Shown in pieces: positions 4,115 through 52,580 of a DNA stretch of 64,000 bases (positions within the stretch are counted from its first letter, which is position 1; every line of letters starts with the position of its first letter). Location of the stretch: assembly GCA_016191105.1 (NCBI GenBank), contig JACPPH010000004.1:1230-65229 (forward strand), read 5' to 3'. Position numbers and translations under genes: made by a program. Source of the stretch: Candidatus Saccharimonadota bacterium. GTDB taxonomy: Bacteria; Patescibacteriota; Saccharimonadia; CAILAD01; BJGX01. Below the pieces are notes generated by a model that saw only the letters and a list, made by a program, of their open reading frames with translations, ran no database searches and was not told the DNA's origin.

Positions 4115-4204
4115 TCAGAAGAGGTGCAGTAGTAAGGAGCACCCGACTCGACCCTCGTGGCCGGGTCGGAGTGACTCCCAAGCTTATAATTCGCTTGTAA
4201 GTTT

Positions 4205-4460
4205 AGGAGTTTACTGAACTCCGGCATTAAAGCAATCAGCAGCACCGGCTGGTCTAAACGCTTCTGTTTCGAGCACGAGCGCCGTCTTTGCACAGAACAG
4301 AAAGTGTAGACTAGTTGGTGTTAGCTAGATTGTGTCCATGCCGGACGGTTTTGCTACCTTTTGCCAAGACAAAAGGTAGTCGTGCACCGAAGGTGTATGA
4401 AAACAGATTCTTCGACTTTCTGCTGAGCAGGATCGCTCAGAATGACAGCAGCTATGGATT
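4205..4460 (+). repeat. Intergenic modular repeat, copy A (partial)
   Basis: Its 5' motif ctccggcattaaagcaatcagca is shared with copy B. Hairpin module X (aacgcttctgtttcgagcacgagcgccgtctttgcacagaacagaaag) is shared with copies B and C. Confidence 0.7.
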
Positions 4461-4463
4461 CGA

Positions 4464-5177
4464 CTAAAACAGATCCTTGGTGTATTCTACCGATCGTTCT
4501 ACAAACACATCTTTGGCGTTTACAATGTCAATCTCAATATCGAAACTCGTGAACACCTTGGGCTGCTTGAGCGCATCGGCCCTAGTCATCCATTTGTTGC
4601 GACCACCCTCGAACTTGGTGAGTAATTTACCCGCAGTTTTGGTGCAGCGCACCACAAAGAATATTTTGTCTTCGAGCTGATCGCCGGTTTCTTGCTGATA
4701 AACCAGTTCGTGGTAGACCCCCGAAATTTTATGATCGGCCGTTAGGCCTGTTTCTTCCATAAGCTCCCGGGCGGCGCATTGCACGATCGTTTCGCCCCAG
4801 CGGATTTTGCCAGTTGGCAGACCCCAGAATCCAAAGTAAGGGTGTTTAAGCCGTTCTTGAAACAAGTACTCTTTTTGACCTTTACTGTTCTTACGCTCAG
4901 CGCACAGAATTACCGCCACCTTGGGCTGACGCTCAATGGTGTTGTTGTCGGTATCGAGTTTGTTGGCGTGCTCTTTGCCGCGGGGTGTGAGCGCGTAGGT
5001 GCCGCGAGCCACCTTCTCGACCAATCCCAGCTCCACCAGCTTTTGAATGTGAAAGTTAAAGTGGTCACTACTCATGCCGGTGCTTTTTTGTAGCTTGGCA
5101 AAGTTGGCTTTCGGGTGAAACAGCAACTCACGCAATATCGAAGTCTGAGCGTCATGGATCTTTACTTCATGACTCAT
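4464..5177 (-). CDS. Winged-helix DNA-binding domain fused to a Nudix hydrolase domain
   Basis: The N-terminus is HTH-like (ILRELLFHPKANFAKLQKSTGMSSDHFNFHIQKLVELGLV). The C-terminus has a Nudix box GKIRWGETIVQCAARELMEETGL. Confidence 0.7.
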   Translation of the reverse strand: MSHEVKIHDAQTSILRELLFHPKANFAKLQKSTGMSSDHFNFHIQKLVELGLVEKVARGTYALTPRGKEHANKLDTDNNTIERQPKVAVILCAERKNSKGQKEYLFQERLKHPYFGFWGLPTGKIRWGETIVQCAARELMEETGLTADHKISGVYHELVYQQETGDQLEDKIFFVVRCTKTAGKLLTKFEGGRNKWMTRADALKQPKVFTSFDIEIDIVNAKDVFVERSVEYTKDLF

Positions 5178-5389
5178 TAGTTGTCCCCTTTCTCTTATAG
5201 TTCGCGCTTGTCACCTTATTGTCTAAAACGACGAAACGCGCGCTTATCTTAAGAGAGCTCTCACCTTGCACTATAGACTGAGCTAAAAGATAAAAAAAGT
5301 AAAGTCGACTTCAGGTTTGCTTGAACTTTGTTCACATCTGGAGTAAAGTAACGGCGATCCCATTCAGCTAGACCCCTAGGAGGTTCGGG

Positions 5390-5792: not shown

Positions 5793-5831
5793 GGGAGTAG
5801 GGCCGCAATGCGGCTCTGCTCCCTTCGCTTT
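5793..5831 (+). terminator. Rho-independent terminator
   Basis: GC-rich hairpin gggagtagggccgcaatgcggctctgctccc followed by ttcgcttttt. Confidence 0.5.
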
Positions 5832-5864: not shown

Positions 5865-6965
5865 ATGAATATTCTAGCGATCGAAACTAGTTGCGATGAA
5901 ACAGCTGCTGCCGTAGTTCAGGATGGCAGCAAGGTTTTGAGTAGTGTGGTGAATTCGCAGGTCGAAATTCATGCGGCTTATGGTGGTGTGGTGCCCGAGG
6001 TGGCAGCTCGCAGTCACATCGAAGTCATCTTACCGGTGATCGAACAAGCCCTGAGCGACGCCAAAGCAACTTGGGACGACATCGATGCCATTGCCGTAAC
6101 TCGTGGCCCGGGTTTGATCGGCTCACTCTTGATCGGTGTTCTTACTGCCAAAACCTTGGCGTTTGCGAAGAACAAACCACTTATTGGGGTGAATCACATT
6201 TGGGCTCATGCTTTTGCAGCCTTCTTGACCCCCACTCCCCCAGCCTTCCCTTTCTTGGCGTTGACCGTTTCGGGCGGCCACACTACCCTTTCGCTGTATC
6301 GCGAAGACTTAACTCGAGAGGTCTTGGGCCAAACGCTCGACGATGCCGCTGGCGAGGCCTTCGACAAAGTTGCCAAGCTGATTGGCCTGCCCTATCCTGG
6401 CGGGCCTCACATATCCAAGGCAGCAGAGAATGGTGACGAGAATAAATATAAGTTTCCGATAGCCAAAACTCCAGGCAAATATGACTTTAGCTTTTCGGGT
6501 TTAAAGACCGCGGTATTACGACAAGTGCAAGAGATTACCGGCGTTAACCCAGGTAACTCTAGGTCTGTCATTCTGAACTCGAGTGAAGAATCTCAGAGAT
6601 CCTTCGGCAGGCCTCAGGATGACAATAAAGGCAAGCTCACTAAAACCTATACCCTAGACAAACAAGTCCAAGCCGATATTGCGGCTAGCTTTCAAAAAGC
6701 TGCTGTGCAGGCCTTGGTGCAAAAAACTTTGAGTGTCTATACCGTGACCCAGCCAGCCAGCATGGTGGTGGGCGGCGGTGTGGCCGCCAACAAATATTTG
6801 CGCACCAAACTCACACAGAGCCTACCTAACGCGCTTTTTTTGCCGTTTGAGTTGTGTACCGACAACGCGGCTATGATTGGCGCTATGGCCGCCAAAATGG
6901 CCGAGCACAAGCGTTACAGTTCGATCGACGAACTAACAGCCGATTCGAGTTTAGAAGAACTCTAG
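5865..6965 (+). CDS. tsaD: tRNA N6-adenosine threonylcarbamoyltransferase TsaD (Kae1/Gcp family)
   Basis: N-terminal MNILAIETSCDETAAAV, plus GPGLIGSLLIG and VSGGH motifs. Contains a roughly 40-aa hydrophilic insertion relative to typical TsaD. Confidence 0.85.
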   Translation: MNILAIETSCDETAAAVVQDGSKVLSSVVNSQVEIHAAYGGVVPEVAARSHIEVILPVIEQALSDAKATWDDIDAIAVTRGPGLIGSLLIGVLTAKTLAFAKNKPLIGVNHIWAHAFAAFLTPTPPAFPFLALTVSGGHTTLSLYREDLTREVLGQTLDDAAGEAFDKVAKLIGLPYPGGPHISKAAENGDENKYKFPIAKTPGKYDFSFSGLKTAVLRQVQEITGVNPGNSRSVILNSSEESQRSFGRPQDDNKGKLTKTYTLDKQVQADIAASFQKAAVQALVQKTLSVYTVTQPASMVVGGGVAANKYLRTKLTQSLPNALFLPFELCTDNAAMIGAMAAKMAEHKRYSSIDELTADSSLEEL

Positions 6966-6974
6966 GCGGCTACT

Positions 6975-7375
6975 TCTCCGGCATTAAAGCAATCAGCAAG
7001 TGAAAATAGTTTTAACGCTCAGTGTTCGAGGACTGTTTGATCCGCATGCCAGCGGAGAGTTCCGCAGCTTCAGCTTGAGAGCAAGCAGGCTGCCACCGGT
7101 TGTGAGCCTATGCCAGAAGCTTTGGCAACTTTCCGCTACAAAGAAGGCCAGTGCGGACAGCACAAGATTCAGCTTTCGGCCGAATGGCCGACTTACTTTT
7201 TAGCAGTAAAAAGTTAAGCAAAAACTGCCGACATGGGCTCAAATGCTGGAAACGCCAACGGCGGCTTCATTTTCTGTTCTGCCGCAGAGACGGCGCTCGT
7301 GCTCGAACAGAAGCGTTCAGCCTTGTTGACTTTCTGATTTTCGAATGTCGGAGAAAGGAAAAGCAAATTATTTAC
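6975..7375 (+). repeat. Intergenic modular repeat, copy B (full length, about 400 bp)
   Basis: Contains the head motif, core module Y (caaagaag...agattcagctttcggccgaa) and hairpin module X. Its 3' half is the reverse complement of the 5' part of copy C. Confidence 0.75.
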
Positions 7376-8150
7376 TAACGACTTGGCGGAGGCCATCAAT
7401 GCGCTTTTGCACTTCGGCCTTCTTGGCGTTGTGAGTGTCGATCTCTTTTTGCAGGCTCTGGATCTGTGTGGTCTTGTCGGCAATCTGCTCGTCGAGGCGC
7501 TTGCTCTCGCCCTCGAGCTTCTCGATCATCTGGCCCACGTTTTTGTCGACGTCTTCGACAACCTCTTCACTGCCCTCTTCTTCTGTGCTGGCCGGTTCGG
7601 TGTCAGTACTGTCCTCGTCGTCGGTTACGGTTAGGCCGTTGTCGTCTGGCTGTTCGTCGGTAGTTGCCTCGTCGCTGGCGGGTTCGGGAGAACCAATCGT
7701 TGCAGCTGGCTTGTCATCCACCTTGTCGGCTGGGCTGACTGGCATTTCGGTGGTATCGGCCTCTTCGGCTTGTACTTTATCGTCGCTGGCAGCTGGGTTA
7801 ACATCGTCGTCGCTGGCTTCGGGTACTGGAGTGGTATCATCACCCATCATCTTGGCGGCAGCGGCATCGTCGCTATTGCTGGCAGCGGCATTGGCCTCCG
7901 ACGGCTTGTATTGGGGTTCAAAAACCTGACCCATTTGTGGTGCATTGGTGCCAGCATCATCGGTTTTGATGTGTGAGATTGCCGGCGCTGGTGCGGCCGA
8001 TTGTAGTGGTACCGTGTTGGCGGCCGGATGTGGTGTAGCGCCAACTACGGCCGGGATGTCATCGGCTATCGTGGGTGTGCCATCATCAACCATCGGTGCA
8101 CGTTGATCCCACTGATCATCTATTTCGAGCGGACTATAAATATCTTTCAT
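7368..8150 (-). CDS. Acidic low-complexity protein with C-terminal coiled coil
   Basis: D/E/T/P-rich body and a C-terminal heptad-like region (QIQSLQKEIDTHNAKKAEVQKRIDGL). The ORF continues to 8225, but an RBS gggagattgg supports the ATG at 8150 (MKDIYSPLEI). Confidence 0.45.
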   Translation of the reverse strand: MKDIYSPLEIDDQWDQRAPMVDDGTPTIADDIPAVVGATPHPAANTVPLQSAAPAPAISHIKTDDAGTNAPQMGQVFEPQYKPSEANAAASNSDDAAAAKMMGDDTTPVPEASDDDVNPAASDDKVQAEEADTTEMPVSPADKVDDKPAATIGSPEPASDEATTDEQPDDNGLTVTDDEDSTDTEPASTEEEGSEEVVEDVDKNVGQMIEKLEGESKRLDEQIADKTTQIQSLQKEIDTHNAKKAEVQKRIDGLRQVVSK

Positions 8151-8225
8151 TGCGACTCCAATCTCCCCCATACTGTCGTACCTCTTTTGCTTATTGTAAA
8201 GATACCAAGGCCAACTGTCAAACAT

Positions 8226-11820: not shown

Positions 11821-11846
11821 AAAAGACCCTCTTTCGGGTCTTTTTA
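11821..11846. terminator. Bidirectional hairpin terminator
   Basis: aaaaa-gaccctctttcgggtc-ttttt, a symmetric A/T-flanked stem-loop. Confidence 0.5.
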
Positions 11847-11854
11847 ATAGTTCC

Positions 11855-11872
11855 TGGCGGAGAGGGTGGGAT
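11855..11872 (-). repeat. 18-nt duplicate of the tRNA-Ser 3' end (tggcggagagggtgggat)
   Basis: Identical to the 3' end of tRNA-Ser(TGA) at 12026-12043, 154 bp away. This is an att-like direct repeat. Confidence 0.65.
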
Positions 11873-12115
<243 letters not shown>

Positions 12116-12389
12116 AGGCTATTTGTTGCTTCGTTTGTGGTTGATCCAAATATTTTTGAGCCAACCTAACGACAATGTCGAAAGTACAAAACCAATTGTT
12201 GGGATAACAGCATTCAGATAGAACTTATCTACTCCTAACAAGTAAAACAGCATGGCCATAAGTAGATAAGTGAGAATCATTATGGCAAACAACCTTGTTT
12301 TACTAGTCTCCCAAGCCTTATCTAATTCAACTCGGTTGTTGCGAGATTGCTTGAATTTCTTTTTCTAAGTCTGCCATTTTGATAATTTC

Positions 12390-12482
12390 TGGCGGAGAGG
12401 GAGGGATTCGAACCCTCGCGGGGGATTACTCCCCCCTACCGGATTAGCAATCCAGCCCCTTCAGCCTCTTGGGTACCTCTCC
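12390..12482 (-). tRNA. tRNA-Ser (anticodon GCT)
   Basis: 93-nt type II tRNA with anticodon loop TTGCTAA and CCA encoded. Confidence 0.9.
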
Positions 12483-16247: not shown

Positions 16248-16292
16248 CTATAAACGAGAGAACCCCGCCCCAAGGGGACGGGATCCTCTCGG
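16248..16292 (-). terminator. Rho-independent terminator (minus strand)
   Basis: Minus-strand hairpin cgagaggatcccgtccccttggggcggggttctctcg followed by tttata. Lies downstream of the dipeptidase gene. Confidence 0.55.
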
Positions 16293-16328
16293 AGCGGGGT
16301 TGTGGTATTGCAGTAGGCGGGCTGAGCT

Positions 16329-17871: not shown

Positions 17872-18434
17872 GAGCAACTCGAGCTCAAAGCAACATTGGC
17901 GAGGGGCATCGATGATCTCTCGCCATCAGGGTCGCGAAGTAATGTTCGCGGCTCTTTGCATTGGCAATAATTTAGGGCGTATACTTACGGTGACCCTATC
18001 ACCCTATCCGGAGGTATTGTTTGTACCAACATCATACTTACATCCAGAGACGACATTGAGCAGCACCGGCACGGGGGTGCCGGAGACTTCTCGGTGTTTG
18101 TACTCATATCCGAGGTACCGGCTCTGCACGAGCTGGGTTTCGTCCGCAGTGCCCACTGCGAAGTCTGCTTTGATTGGCACTTCCGGGTCGTAACACCGCA
18201 AGGAGTTGAACTCCACGCGGAAGAAAGCGACTTCAGGGATCTGGCCGAGGCAGTGATCGCGTTGATCGAGGTGAGCTCGTTCCTCGTTGACTTTGATCGG
18301 CAGGGTACTGCCAGGGCGGCGTGACGGCTGAAACCCGAACTGTGCACAGGAAGCTAGCTGTGCCTGGGCACCCCGTGTCCAGGCACAGCTTCTTGCCCGA
18401 GCTATTAACTAGTTTGACAGTTTGGCCAAGAACT

Positions 18435-39190: not shown

Positions 39191-39949
39191 ATGCTTATGG
39201 AGATAGCACCCCGACCTAGACCCAAAACTGATGACGAAATCGATGCTGGCATGCGCTCGAGAATTCGCAATCTGAGTCGAGTGGGGGCACTTGGCTTGGG
39301 CGCTATGGTTGCGGCCACTGGCTATCAAGCTACACATACCGAACCCACGCCAGCTAGCGAGAGGGTAGAGGCCGCCACAACCACAACCCTGGCACCAGAG
39401 ACTACTACCACGACCGAGCAACAAACCACGCCAGCCAACTGGCTGCCCGAAGGTGTAAAAGCCAAATGGCCGCTGATAGTTGAGGTTGCCAAAGGCTACC
39501 AGATTGACCCACAACTGGTAGCAATTATCATAGCCGAAGAATCGGGTGGCAACGAACACGCTGTAAACCCCAGTGGTGCCAAGGGGCTATTTCAGTTAAT
39601 GCCAGACACCGAGAAGGTTATGGCTAGCAAGCTTGGCTATACGAACTATAATATCTACGACTCCAAGACCAACCTAGAGCTTGGTACGGCACTAATCCGT
39701 TATCTCAACGACCACTACATTGCGCCAGCCGGAGTTGATCTGGAGACTCCACAAGGAATTGCTATGCTGGCTTACGGCATGAGTGGCGGCGAGGGTGATT
39801 TGCAGACATTTATTCGTACCGGCTCACTTAATTCAACCAGCTATGCTAAGCAAAACCAGGCGGTAGCCAACCTTTGGGTGAACATGTGGAGCGACCGGGG
39901 TGAGCCTACGAGCCCAACATTTGAACAACTAAGAGGAGTACAGAAGTGA
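39191..39949 (+). CDS. Lytic transglycosylase (SLT domain)
   Basis: SLT motifs ESGGN...AVNPSGAKGLFQLMPDT. N-terminal transmembrane segment and a T-rich linker. Confidence 0.75.
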   Translation: MLMEIAPRPRPKTDDEIDAGMRSRIRNLSRVGALGLGAMVAATGYQATHTEPTPASERVEAATTTTLAPETTTTTEQQTTPANWLPEGVKAKWPLIVEVAKGYQIDPQLVAIIIAEESGGNEHAVNPSGAKGLFQLMPDTEKVMASKLGYTNYNIYDSKTNLELGTALIRYLNDHYIAPAGVDLETPQGIAMLAYGMSGGEGDLQTFIRTGSLNSTSYAKQNQAVANLWVNMWSDRGEPTSPTFEQLRGVQK

Positions 39950-40125
39950 GTCGAAACAAAAAATCATCTAAGTTCTTGATAGTATTAGTCTTGATTGTGG
40001 CTGTTGCAGTCGTCGTGATCTATCTGGTGGCGAAGGCCATGTCGTCGAACACTGACTGTCAGCAGAAGCTCAAAGACGTTCAGGCTTTAAGCCAAAATGG
40101 CTCAGCTGTTTCTTGCCAAAACTAA
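39946..40125 (+). CDS. Small single-transmembrane protein (59 aa, GTG start)
   Basis: RBS aagaggag 7 nt before the GTG. The start overlaps the slt stop. Confidence 0.35.
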   Translation: MSRNKKSSKFLIVLVLIVAVAVVVIYLVAKAMSSNTDCQQKLKDVQALSQNGSAVSCQN

Positions 40126-40526
40126 GGTAGTTGGGCTATCTCCGACATTCGAAAATCAGAAAGCCAACTAGGCTGAACGCTTCTGTTCGAGCACGAGTGC
40201 CGTCTCTGTCACAGAACAGACAGTGAAGCCGCCGTTGGCGATTCTAGATTTGAGCCCATGTCGGTGAGTTTGCTTCTTTGCTCATTCAAAGAAGCCCCGT
40301 GCGGGTAGCACATAGATTCAGCTTTCGGCCTGAACGGTCGACCATTCTTTTGAAAACACCATAAAGTTGTGCAAAAGTGTTTTGGCCTGTACTACGATTC
40401 TATCAGCGCTCAGCCAGTCGCAACTTCCTGTTGCTGTGCGGTTCGCCAGCCAGCGAATTCTCGCAACAAAGAGCGTTGCTTAGTGGCTTCGCTTGCTGAT
40501 CGCAGCAACGGCCGGAAGAGCAGTTT
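40120..40526 (-). repeat. Intergenic modular repeat, copy C (full length, inverted relative to B)
   Basis: Its 5' 130 nt are the reverse complement of the 3' end of copy B. Core module Y is in the same orientation as in B. Confidence 0.75.
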
Positions 40527-41180
40527 TTAGTCGCTGCTGGCTTTTTTGGCCTCGGCAATTAACTCATTTAAATTAGTTGGGATCGGATTGTCTTGGATTA
40601 GTTTGGCCATATAGATGGTGTTGGCCACCATGTAGCGGCAGGTTTTGTTGGTGTACAGGTGCTTATCGCCACCGGCCTCTATGTAGCTGGGGCCGGGGCC
40701 GGCATTGCCCACCCAATAGCAGTCAACGTTGGGTGGCACCGTGCAGCCTAGGTGGGTGAGGTTGAATAACGTATTGGCGGCTACATCGTGAGCACCATCT
40801 TCGTTGCCAGTAACAATCACTCCGGCCACCTTGTTGTATAGCGGGAACTGGCCAGTTTTGGTATCGCCCTCGTCGTAGGTGCCGTCGAGTCGCTCCAGCA
40901 CCAACTGACTAACGCTACCGCGCACCCCAAACCAAATTGGTGTGCCAATTATCAAAATGTTGCAGTCTTTGATCTTACTTAAAATCTCGGGCCACTGATC
41001 GCCCTCGCCCTCGTTGGAACTAACACCAAACTTAACGTCGTAATCACGTACTCGCACTACTTCGGTTTCGACACCTTGAGCCTTGTAAAGCTCCACGGCC
41101 TTGTCGATTAGAGCGCCGGTGTTGCTAACTGACGGCGAAGGTTTAAGGGTGCAGTTTAAGAATAGTGCTTTTAAAGCCAT
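40527..41180 (-). CDS. Flavodoxin-like NAD(P)H-dependent oxidoreductase (FMN reductase / quinone reductase family)
   Basis: NCTLKPSP and ILIIGTPIWFG motifs. Confidence 0.6.
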   Translation of the reverse strand: MALKALFLNCTLKPSPSVSNTGALIDKAVELYKAQGVETEVVRVRDYDVKFGVSSNEGEGDQWPEILSKIKDCNILIIGTPIWFGVRGSVSQLVLERLDGTYDEGDTKTGQFPLYNKVAGVIVTGNEDGAHDVAANTLFNLTHLGCTVPPNVDCYWVGNAGPGPSYIEAGGDKHLYTNKTCRYMVANTIYMAKLIQDNPIPTNLNELIAEAKKASSD

Positions 41181-44969: not shown

Positions 44970-45053
44970 CCTGCCTGGGGAGTCCCAGGCGGGCTCCCTT
45001 CTGAGGGTTTAATGTTTTTGATTAAATCTTGAGAAGGGAAGTATAATTAAGCT

Positions 45054-49292: not shown

Positions 49293-49826
49293 ATGAGCTT
49301 GATGGCAAGAAGCACCAAAAAGATTCAACTTATTTGGTTGGCGGTGGCTACAATTTTGGGACTTATTTTGGTAGCCGGGCTGGTAGTGATATTGGTTAAC
49401 CGCCAAAAAAAGCCCACTTACTTTAACGACAATTCGGTTAAAATTATCGACTTCGAAAGTAGCACCGGACCAGTTAGTCCACAGTATCAGTCTAGTCGGT
49501 CGCTCATAATTACACCCACCAGCTGTACCTACATTGTTACGAACTTTGGTCAAAACGCAGCTCCGGTTACCACTAATTGCCAGATAAGCCAACAAGGGTT
49601 CGAGGCTATAGCGGCTGCCTACAAAGACCAGGATGTTCAAAACAAGCTCGGTGGCAAGCAAACCCAGAATAATTTAATCGGCGGTCCAACCAATACAATT
49701 ACCATTACTACTGCCGATGGCAATCAACTGAAAGCCAACGTAACACCCGAGCTTAAGAATCAGATTAGTAGTTGGCTAAAAACCGTACAACAATATGTGC
49801 CGCAAGTTGGCGAGATGCAGTACTAG
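49293..49826 (+). CDS. Membrane-anchored hypothetical protein
   Basis: N-terminal transmembrane helix. Its last 47 nt are duplicated at 50243-50289. Confidence 0.5.
   Translation: MSLMARSTKKIQLIWLAVATILGLILVAGLVVILVNRQKKPTYFNDNSVKIIDFESSTGPVSPQYQSSRSLIITPTSCTYIVTNFGQNAAPVTTNCQISQQGFEAIAAAYKDQDVQNKLGGKQTQNNLIGGPTNTITITTADGNQLKANVTPELKNQISSWLKTVQQYVPQVGEMQY
49780..49826 (+). repeat. Direct repeat, left copy (47 bp)
   Basis: aaaccgtacaacaatatgtgccgcaagttggcgagatgcagtactag. Confidence 0.8.
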
Positions 49827-50170: not shown

Positions 50171-50242
50171 GGTTATTTATTCTTAGTAAATCTTAGTATC
50201 TTTTAGCTCATTGGCCATAAGGGCAGATCAATAGCTGACTGC

Positions 50243-50289
50243 AAACCGTGCAACAATATGTGCCGCAAGTTGGCGAGATGCAGTACTAG
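50243..50289 (+). repeat. Direct repeat, right copy (47 bp, one mismatch)
   Basis: aaaccgtgcaacaatatgtgccgcaagttggcgagatgcagtactag. Confidence 0.8.
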
Positions 50290-52046: not shown

Positions 52047-52256
52047 TTAAGGCGTACAAAAACCAAAAGTATGGCCTGTGCAGCCGGCACTTCTTTGTAG
52101 CCAAAGAAGCAAAGCTTCCGGCATGGACGCAAAACAAGAGCGCTAGCTAACCTCTCGCTTCCAGTTCTGCGGAACTCGCTTAAACGCTCAAACAGTCCTC
52201 GAACGTGGGGCACTCAAGCTTAGCCAGCTTTCTGTTTGCTTTAATGCCGGACAGAA
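52047..52256 (-). repeat. Intergenic modular repeat, copy D (partial, inverted)
   Basis: Its reverse complement matches the copy B head (ccggcattaaagcaa, gttcgaggactgtttga, gagttccgcag, atgccagaagctttgg...caaagaag). Confidence 0.65.
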
Positions 52257-52580
52257 CTATTTTTTGTGATTGGGTTTTCCCGAAGCAACATGCCAATGTA
52301 GGTGCTTAGAGTCTTGATACTCGCCAAGGTTAGTTAGTACTTGGCATTTACCATGTTTGGCAACCACATCTTGGGCAACTGTTTGAACCACATGAAGGAT
52401 AGCTAAAAGTATATCGTCATCAGCCTCCAATAACGATTCGACATGCTTTTTCGGAACCACAACAATGTGTACCGGCCAGTGTGGCTTAGTGTGTTTAAAA
52501 GCCAGCACTTTGTCGGTTTCTAAGACCTTTTCAACCTTGGTTTTGCCGCTGAAGACTTCATCGCAGTAAAAATCATCCAT
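52257..52580 (-). CDS. HIT-family (histidine triad) protein
   Basis: HLHWHV histidine-triad motif. Confidence 0.8.
   Translation of the reverse strand: MDDFYCDEVFSGKTKVEKVLETDKVLAFKHTKPHWPVHIVVVPKKHVESLLEADDDILLAILHVVQTVAQDVVAKHGKCQVLTNLGEYQDSKHLHWHVASGKPNHKK

Follow-up and report, generated by a model that had tools for sequence, protein, structure and literature searches.

Two intergenic spacers in a 64-kb stretch of a Candidatus Saccharibacteria metagenome-assembled genome (the whole stretch analysed here, hereafter the window) resemble each other crosswise: one part of the spacer at 40126-40526 (locus C, 401 bp) matches the spacer at 6966-7367 (locus B) in inverted orientation, and another part matches it in direct orientation. 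Each locus takes up all the space within a convergent gene pair, which is tsaD with a 285-aa gene at B, and a 59-aa open reading frame (ORF) with a flavodoxin/FMN-reductase gene at C. The question is whether a segment of these spacers is invertible, or whether palindromic units entered them independently; the initial annotation, which described a hairpin module of about 50 nt lying on opposite sides and strands of a common core, had offered both possibilities. We find that inversion is not supported, and that independent insertion or replacement of a palindromic unit is supported: the spacer at locus C is probably a mosaic of dispersed non-coding palindromic repeats, here called rods.

The mixed direct and inverted pattern exists and lies far beyond chance. 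When the window was compared with itself by blastn, the minus strand at 7357-7228 proved 90.8% identical to positions 40136-40264 (130 columns, E 9e-47), and positions 40287-40376 matched 7139-7223 on the plus strand (77.8% identity over 90 columns, E 6e-11). A repeat search with find_repeats recovered the inverted pair (7246-7357 and 40136-40247, 112 nt, 90%), and nhmmer aligned 40281-40376 with 7133-7223. The two matches had first been placed at 40125-40240 with 7255-7370 (inverted, ~85% identity) and at 40262-40345 with 7135-7200 (direct); both hold, with coordinates that were 10-30 nt off and, for the inverted pair, an identity that was set too low. The central segment common to the two loci, Y, has a definite orientation: comparison of Y(C) with Y(B) gives a z-score (z) of 23.9 for the direct alignment and of 1.5 for the reverse complement.

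The inverted block proves to be a whole hairpin element of ~129 nt, and not the ~50-nt module first described; it belongs to a dispersed family whose members are 125-150 nt long. The 91% match covers exactly one rod of each locus, C1 and B2, plus 5 nt upstream (40136-40264), and the flanks and trailing hairpins of these two rods are unrelated beyond TTTGCTT. High identity is limited to the rod, and therefore recent copying or conversion involved the rod alone as its unit. A second, more diverged copy, overlooked at first, stands on the other side at both loci: B1 at locus B and C2 at locus C (Table 1). The restriction of the match to the rod, the dispersed family and the sites that are empty in relatives all favor the second of the two initial proposals, independent insertion of a palindromic unit resembling repetitive extragenic palindromic (REP) elements.

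The rods constitute a dispersed, structured, non-coding palindromic repeat family that was previously undescribed. An nhmmer profile built from five copies (A, B1, B2, C1 and D) matches all five with E values of 6e-38 to 8e-28 and, in the rest of the window, nothing else below E=1. The copies are joined into one family by a third, partial match at 4254-4344 and by the match of 6977-7146 with 52090-52251. A covariance model (CM), R1, of 168 positions and 50 pairs scores the five copies at 85-152 bits and finds no further significant copy over the 64 kb, including with its filters off. Because R1 misses C2 even with the filters off, the membership of C2 is based on pairwise evidence: its semi-global alignment gives z of 10.2 against A and 11.5 against the left rod of L044, a locus of a second lineage, whereas the opposite orientation gives only 0.1-2.2. 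In total, the window contains five clear copies and a sixth, diverged one, C2. The mean column identity among copies of one genome is 58-64%, rod GC content is ~50%, and the rods are flanked by YTYC and RGYTTTGCT. Most reading frames in the copies hold stop codons, and a coding reading was dropped for this reason. In five of the six, the start of the copy is preceded at 5-15 nt by the stop codon of a gene in the same orientation.

Rfam 15 at the gathering threshold returned only four tRNAs from the whole window, Rfam at E<=10 over loci A-B and C returned nothing relevant, and Rfam on L044, L046 and L047 (sites in the second lineage and their orthologues) returned no match. Plasmids and phages gave no blastn match to the element, and viral contigs gave chance 16-mer matches only, with zero CM matches. 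Six-frame translations of the five units, joined as one protein query so as to detect false ORFs annotated over further copies, found no match, the candidate list consisting of random word matches. A strict three-motif DNA pattern run against public genome and metagenome contigs produced single chance-like matches in unrelated taxa, except for L013; the genome collection does not include the host species. A literature search found no paper on such repeats in Saccharibacteria.

Each copy folds as a single long imperfect hairpin, with a minimum free energy (MFE) of -44 to -65 kcal/mol and z of -2.0 to -7.4; the exception is B1, with z of -1.3. The rod ends are TCCGRCAT...ATGYCGGA and the apex is TTCGAG...CAGAAC, while the middle stem is variable yet self-complementary. 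From the base upward, the hairpin consists of a basal helix of 8 bp, UCCGGCAU/AUGCCGGA (UCCGACAU/AUGUCGG in the X subtype defined below), a 4x4 internal loop that in most copies is UAAA/GUCC (TAAA/GTCC), another conserved helix, GCAAUC/GAUUGU, in which the 3' arm has 1-2 bulged bases, a long stem of varying sequence among copies, and the conserved apex UUCGAG...CAGAAC. The rod is trailed by TTTGCT, a linker that is conserved, and then by the short hairpin H, of which GCTTCTTTG-loop-CAAAGAAGC is an example, without a T-run. This structure was drawn from the majority of MFE folds, from pair counts and from a chimeric-arm test instead of RNAalifold, since bulges throw a plain MAFFT alignment of the full set of copies out of register.

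The pairing of the two arms has been preserved through extensive sequence change. In a six-copy alignment, standard pairs occupy 79% of cells, compared with 35-42% after a displacement of the partners by 1-3 columns, and 19 of 51 pairs are changed on both sides, compared with 4-11 when slid; these observed values were reached by none of 500 shuffles. An alignment-free arm swap gives a similar picture: for A, D, C2 and C1, the 3' arm that pairs best with the 5' arm is the rod's own. The MFE of the sense strand is the lower one in 8 of 9 rods.

Some more specific structural assignments were rejected. Strand-specific RNA folding, as read from the MFE asymmetry, was dropped, since G.U-type and A.C-type appositions are found in a ratio of 33 to 27 (p=0.26). 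A k-turn or T-loop at the GUUCGAG/CAGAAC apex was also dropped, Watson-Crick pairing of GUUC with GAAC giving a better fit. A SECIS element, a retron msd, group II intron domain V and SRP or 6S RNA all misfit on copy number, context and the absent Rfam match.

The two loci turn out to share one layout, which reads rod(+), H, an oriented centre of ~50 nt, a second hairpin H' and rod(-). Hairpin H also trails D, L013/L044 and A, and the tail of the L013/L044 rod can be aligned with Y(C) in direct orientation (z=14.8). The spacer of L044 is collinear with B over 6970-7324 (E 1e-13) and with C over 40139-40402 (E 4e-9) by nhmmer. In both B and C the centre holds a hairpin of 6 bp, followed by a T-rich run on the plus strand; the number of terminator-like sites in the B and C regions is not clearly above that in shuffled sequence.

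Within this common layout the rods differ in subtype. Subtype X comprises B2, C1, the apex of A and the rod of L047; subtype Z comprises D, the left rod of L013/L044, and the 5' arm and apex of B1; and a third subtype comprises the right rod of L044 and the 3' arm of B1. C2 is set apart from these subtypes, with A and the left rod of L044 as its nearest relatives. Members of the family recombine, and A and B1 are chimeras: A has a Z-like base and an X-type apex, and B1 has a 5' arm that is 78% identical to the left rod of L044 and a 3' arm that is 71% identical to the right rod of L044 and 55-65% identical to the others. In these terms, locus C has the order X(+) Y(+) other(-) and locus B has the order Z(+) Y(+) X(-). 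The combination of a 91% inverted block with a direct centre arises because the X subtype is the left-hand rod in C and the right-hand rod in B. The crosswise match needs no inversion, and it is reasonably likely that B and C are both hairpin-repeat mosaics.

An invertible segment would have to accommodate the same observations. With rod subtype as the reference, the reverse complement of C reads other-type(+) Y(-) X(-), against Z(+) Y(+) X(-) in B, as expected if the two loci were in opposite states, and in whole-locus alignment C scores better against the reverse complement of B (116) than against B itself (67). Both orientations align over the full length at low stringency because B and C are each a quasi-palindrome, and the reverse-score excess is due entirely to the C1/B2 rod pair. 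The arms of B1 come from two subtypes, as would result if two unlike inverted rods crossed over at the apex; however, B2 is an intact X rod and not the reciprocal chimera of B1, and a crossover inside unlike rods would leave mismatched arms, whereas the arms of both C1 and C2 match, indicating that no such crossover occurred in C. Rods within one locus are only 69-75% alike (z about 5), and the orientation of Y relative to the left rod is constant in B, C and L044 for any rod subtype. Short-read contigs of the same sample (Logan contigs of SRR12113392, 100% identical to the window) end inside both loci, in the tail of B1 (7139), in C1 (40200) and in C2 (40417), but such breaks are expected from repeats alone. 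When ~60 window ORFs were scanned against Pfam, no recombinase, invertase, transposase or reverse-transcriptase domain was found.

Gain or loss of the rods at gene-end spacers is seen directly when the window is compared with related genomes. The spacer between tsaD and its downstream gene, which measures 402 nt here, is 55 nt in one relative (L020) and 46 nt in another (L021), with synteny and both ORF ends conserved, and in these relatives it holds only a GC-rich hairpin with T/A-rich flanks, a plain terminator hairpin. The spacer between the HIT and MgsA genes, which holds D, measures 210 nt here and 44 nt in a third and closer relative (L042), whose HIT protein is 88% identical; homology with L042 restarts at TTTTGGTTTTTGTACGC, immediately behind the tail of D. 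Since the same sites are spacers of 44-55 nt in relatives, the elements are insertions. R1 finds no copy in L020 (11.5 kb), L021 (21 kb) or L042 (19.5 kb), and a scan of the same sequences for long inverted repeats finds no other rod-like hairpin.

Filled and empty sites also occur side by side in the second lineage. In the metagenome contig L013, which L044 extends, a Z-type rod (145 bits) is followed by H, Y and an inverted rod of the third subtype, and the L044 composite is flanked by a 161-aa gene and dprA. In L047 an X-like rod and H are present (26.8 bits, E 2e-5; z 11.7 against C1), and the basal helix of this rod is changed on both sides, from CCGACAU/AUGUCGG to CCGACUA/UAGUCGG. The sites in L044 and L047 are filled, and the orthologous sites in L046 and L048 are empty. 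The family, the trailing hairpin and the composite architecture are common to at least three lineages, and presence or absence varies within each group.

Two of the empty sites show a further feature, which we record separately. In L020 (8193-8210), TCCGGC is followed by TATGTTCAAT (TCCGGC, then TAT), a junction resembling a rod terminus and lying exactly at the start of A (window 4220); L020 contains no other CGGCTAT over 11.5 kb, and its homology with the window extends through the TCCGGC of rod A. In L042 (10308-10322), TGTCGGC followed by TATAAG likewise lies exactly at the start of D (window 52251). The motif was chosen after being seen, it is absent from the empty B sites, and the HIT C-termini align codon by codon without it; it may be either an insertion target or a coincidence. 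Locus A, in addition, lies at a synteny break: in L020 a hairpin (8147-8186) is directly followed by a 135-aa gene, and in the window (4171-5389) the order is hairpin, rod A, a NUDIX gene (-) and then a 128-aa gene, the NUDIX gene being absent from that L020 site. The stretch 5315-5368 beside the NUDIX gene bears a marginal resemblance to the tail of rod B2 (z 3.6).

Table 1. Rods, hairpins and linking segments of the repeat family in the 64-kb window
Feature	Position	Strand	nhmmer match	Context	Evidence and remarks
Rod C1 (X subtype), 125-nt hairpin	40141-40265	+	40135-40274 (+)	Starts 15 nt past stop codon of 59-aa ORF (39946-40125)	R1 145 bits over 40141-40298; MFE -52.5 kcal/mol, z -4.5
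Segment Y(C): linker, H, oriented ~50-nt centre, second hairpin	40266-40383	+			Common to locus B in direct orientation
Hairpin H after C1	40272-40295	+			GCTTCTTTG-CTCATT-CAAAGAAGC, no T-run; read from sequence and folded
Central hairpin of Y(C)	40325-40341	+			TCGGCC-TGAAC-GGTCGA, then CCATTCTTTT; terminator-like in simple scan
Rod C2, diverged inverted copy	~40384-40517	-		Starts ~9 nt past stop codon of flavodoxin/FMN-reductase gene (40527-41180, -)	Pairwise alignment; MFE -59.1 kcal/mol, z -4.5
Rod B1, chimera with poorly pairing arms	6977-7118	+	6972-7125 (+)	Starts 11 nt past tsaD stop codon	CM 84.9 bits; MFE z only -1.3
Segment Y(B)	7119-7226	+			Holds central hairpin 7176-7191, then CTTACTTTTT
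Rod B2 (X subtype), partner of C1 in inverted match	7227-7352	-	7218-7358 (-)	Starts 15 nt past stop codon of 285-aa gene (7368-8225, -)	CM 118 bits over 7189-7352
Solo unit A: rod 4220-4345, hairpin H 4353-4379	4220-4379	+	4215-4354 (+)	Rod 6 nt after conserved hairpin 4171-4213, also present in L020	CM 138 bits; MFE -64.7 kcal/mol, z -7.4
Solo unit D: rod 52117-52251 (Z), hairpin H 52090-52109	52086-52251	-	52108-52257 (-)	Starts 5 nt past HIT gene stop codon; upstream of MgsA/RarA gene	CM 152 bits; MFE -60.4 kcal/mol, z -4.0

These observations suggest how the mosaics may have been assembled. We propose that rods would spread, or overwrite one another, as separate units of ~129 nt, either through non-autonomous transposition, with the enzyme encoded at another place, or through gene conversion among the copies. 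The complementarity of the arms would be kept because the element probably functions as one folded strand. With a stop codon directly ahead of them, most copies would be co-transcribed as a long hairpin in the 3' untranslated region (3'-UTR) which, by analogy with known repeats, could affect 3'-end formation or mRNA stability.

Several points weigh against this explanation. No target-site duplication is visible at any boundary of a rod, a rod-plus-hairpin unit or a composite, nor in the comparisons of filled and empty sites, although old insertions could have lost it. The Pfam scan of the ~60 window ORFs identified no mobilising enzyme. The family evidence comprises nine rods from three lineages, and with three composites (B, C and L044) a free assortment of rod subtypes is statistically inseparable from a flip of the centre in the past. 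The position behind a stop codon is not a rule: in L044 the right rod faces the region upstream of dprA, and A and L013 lie 105-115 nt from a stop codon. The near balance of G.U-type and A.C-type appositions leaves a strand-specific fold weakly supported. Finally, the strong covariation and the conserved loops would fit a selected RNA function as well as mobility.

This last point leads to the strongest competing explanation, which we nevertheless consider unlikely: that the rods are functional structured RNAs under selection, for example a cis-acting 3'-UTR element that sets mRNA 3' ends or stability or binds a protein at its conserved internal loops, rather than selfish mobile DNA. Compensatory change is indeed extensive while loops and apex stay conserved, the two-sided change in the basal helix of L047 is an instance of it, and the sense fold is the more stable in nearly all rods. 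The location of five window copies just past the stop of a co-oriented gene would suit a 3'-UTR element, but the six copies in 64 kb adjoin unrelated housekeeping genes, and close relatives lack rods at the same sites while the genes are unchanged. Different subtypes occupy one orthologous site in L044 and L047; yet the right rod of L044 is antisense to both neighbour genes, chimeric or decaying copies exist (B1 and C2), the apposition counts show no asymmetry, and no Rfam family was matched. A selected RNA role is compatible with the mosaic of inserted repeats that we favor; domesticated repeats are known.

A bolder extension, which we regard as quite improbable, is that the rods, instead of being ordinary selfish repeats, represent a new class of folded-strand element in Saccharibacteria, a group of the candidate phyla radiation (CPR): either a hairpin recombination site, akin to attC or CTX attP, which a host tyrosine recombinase would insert behind genes at YCGGC^TAT pseudo-sites, or a conserved modular 3'-UTR RNA cassette, made of rod, hairpin and terminator, that spreads from gene to gene. 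If true, such a class would explain the base-loop-helix layout, the complementarity of the arms despite sequence turnover and the motif at the two empty sites. A narrower version, very improbable in our estimate, holds that the rods would be folded single-stranded DNA recombination sites, analogous to integron attC or CTX attP(+), with which a host tyrosine recombinase would insert DNA at chromosomal pseudo-sites. An attC site is laid out as an R box, an unpaired spacer, an L box, extrahelical bases and a variable terminal structure, and the rod has a comparable order of base helix, unpaired 4x4 spacer, second helix with bulges on the 3' arm and variable terminal stem. The terminus-like motif at the empty sites of L020 and L042 falls exactly where the rod begins, but it was picked post hoc, is missing from the empty B sites and is dispensable to the codon-by-codon alignment of the HIT C-termini. 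Locus A does lie at a synteny break, next to a NUDIX gene missing from that site in L020; however, the window contains no attC core motifs (RYYYAAC/GTTRRRY), cassette array or integrase, and the mismatch counts show no strand asymmetry.

Slightly less probable still is the site-specific inversion with which we began, in which the centre or one rod would be an invertible segment, with recombination between the inverted rods or at a core such as CCATGYCGG, and B and C would be in opposite states: the shared collinear layout, the unlike rods, the matched arms in C and the lack of a recombinase domain among the scanned window ORFs all speak against it.

Other features were observed around the rods and in their vicinity. 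Ordinary short GC-rich hairpins stand at other gene ends of the window (5793-5823, with a T-run; 16261-16301; 18356-18390; 19195-19235; 44995-45039), and therefore the genome uses conventional terminator-like hairpins where rods are absent. The tsaD product that borders locus B (5865-6965) is longer than most homologues, at 366 aa against 343 aa, and the excess is an internal insertion of ~23 aa (NSRSVILNSSEESQRSFGRPQDDNKGK) and not a terminal extension. Near the second-lineage sites, a near-perfect hairpin of ~80 nt, AAAGGGAGTAATCTGCTCGCGAGATCTAAAAGGAGGGTGAGTTTTAGATTTGGCCTCGCGGAGCAGATTACTCCCTT, is found in L044 (1256-1332), L046 (812-888) and L048 (~1578-1654); two of these organisms, with only 60% identity in the neighbour protein, have it in identical form, and the third departs from them by one base. 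This hairpin lies in a conserved non-coding stretch of ~200 nt upstream of dprA, carries a Shine-Dalgarno-like AAGGAGGGUGA in its loop and has a folding energy of about -44 kcal/mol; Rfam gives no match, and the hairpin may represent a structured RNA not described before.

Two further sets of repeats occur in the window. The 3' end of tRNA-Ser (CTGGCGGAGAGGGTGGGAT) occurs three times (11842-11872, 12013-12043 and 12377-12407), the first outside any called tRNA; this first occurrence could be the piece of a tRNA that remained from an integrated element. An inverted repeat of 134 nt (81%; 11983-12116 and 19106-19239) extends over tRNA-Ser genes and their flanks. A direct repeat of 66 nt (89%), ending in TAG, is found at 49761-49826 and 50224-50289, 463 nt apart, among small ORFs that have no Pfam match.

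The presence of such a family has several consequences. Genomes of Saccharibacteria and other CPR members measure ~1 Mb, and here a large structured repeat occurs roughly every 10 kb of the stretch examined, in gene-end spacers that hold a plain terminator hairpin in relatives. The family is unusually well structured for a CPR genome, although the phenomenon as such is familiar. It fragments short-read assemblies of these organisms, and its insertion polymorphisms could serve as markers to track strains. In addition, it supplies a natural set of variants for testing the effects of long 3'-UTR hairpins on transcript ends, in a lineage with few known regulators. More generally, a mixed direct and inverted match between quasi-palindromic mosaics does not alone indicate an invertible switch.

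Comparison with known systems places the rods more precisely. Like the invertible segments of Hin, Gin and Fim, loci B and C have an oriented segment between inverted repeats; those systems, however, use short identical recombination sites, whereas B and C have long diverged hairpins, and no invertase gene was found among the window ORFs scanned. The attC and CTX attP(+) sites are imperfect palindromes of 57-141 nt that follow an ORF and have conserved ends, an unpaired spacer, bulges and a variable structured middle. The rods differ from attC in lacking its cores, array, integrase and cassettes, and are dispersed among syntenic housekeeping genes. In REPINs, which are paired inverted REPs mobilised by RAYT (the REP-associated tyrosine transposase), the hairpin doublet is the copied unit, and its pairing is kept by compensatory change. 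The rods show a similar compensatory pairing, but each is a single continuous long hairpin and not two short palindromes; no RAYT gene was identified, and no RAYT (Y1 transposase) domain was seen in the window ORFs scanned over the 64 kb.

The rods share a number of properties with MITEs (miniature transposable elements with inverted repeats). They are small, multi-copy and without a transposase ORF, vary in presence or absence between related genomes, and possess terminal inverted repeats (TCCGRCAT...ATGYCGGA) with complementarity throughout the element; the target-site duplication of strict MITEs is missing. MITEs fold into long RNA stem-loops, are often found at gene 3' ends and are co-transcribed (PMC3184786). 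Among them, the enterobacterial repetitive intergenic consensus (ERIC, ~127 bp) and the Correia element (104-157 bp) match the rods in size and in forming one long imperfect intergenic hairpin, and also resemble them in lying often at gene 3' ends with co-transcription, in presence or absence among strains and in having no transposase gene (PMC3184786). ERIC and Correia elements, however, have TA target duplications and fairly uniform copies, whereas the rods have no detected duplication, wide divergence, matched arms and a trailing hairpin. The rods are not ERIC elements, having flanks of YTYC and RGYTTTGCT rather than TA, and a host that is not an enterobacterium.

In organisation, the nearest parallel is provided by the REPs of Enterobacteria and Pseudomonas and the bacterial interspersed mosaic elements (BIMEs) that they form. 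Like the rods, these are extragenic palindromic units of several subtypes, which occur solo or in mosaics, with neighbouring units in opposed orientation and joined by specific linkers (PMC3184786). B, C and L044 each display this arrangement, with rod(+), linker Y and rod(-), the two rods being of different subtypes. REPs form mosaic clusters and favor convergent gene pairs, and REP/BIME elements at gene 3' ends and in such pairs are linked to recombination and mRNA stability; for ERIC, Correia and REP elements alike, an effect on 3'-end formation or mRNA stability has been documented (PMC3184786). REP units are GC-rich and only 20-40 nt long, compared with 125-150 nt and ~50% GC for the rods, share no sequence similarity with them and have not a Saccharibacterium as host. 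Thus the element belongs among the palindromic intergenic repeats of the MITE, REP/BIME and ERIC kind, closest to REP/BIME in its organisation and to the ERIC and Correia MITEs in its size and single hairpin.

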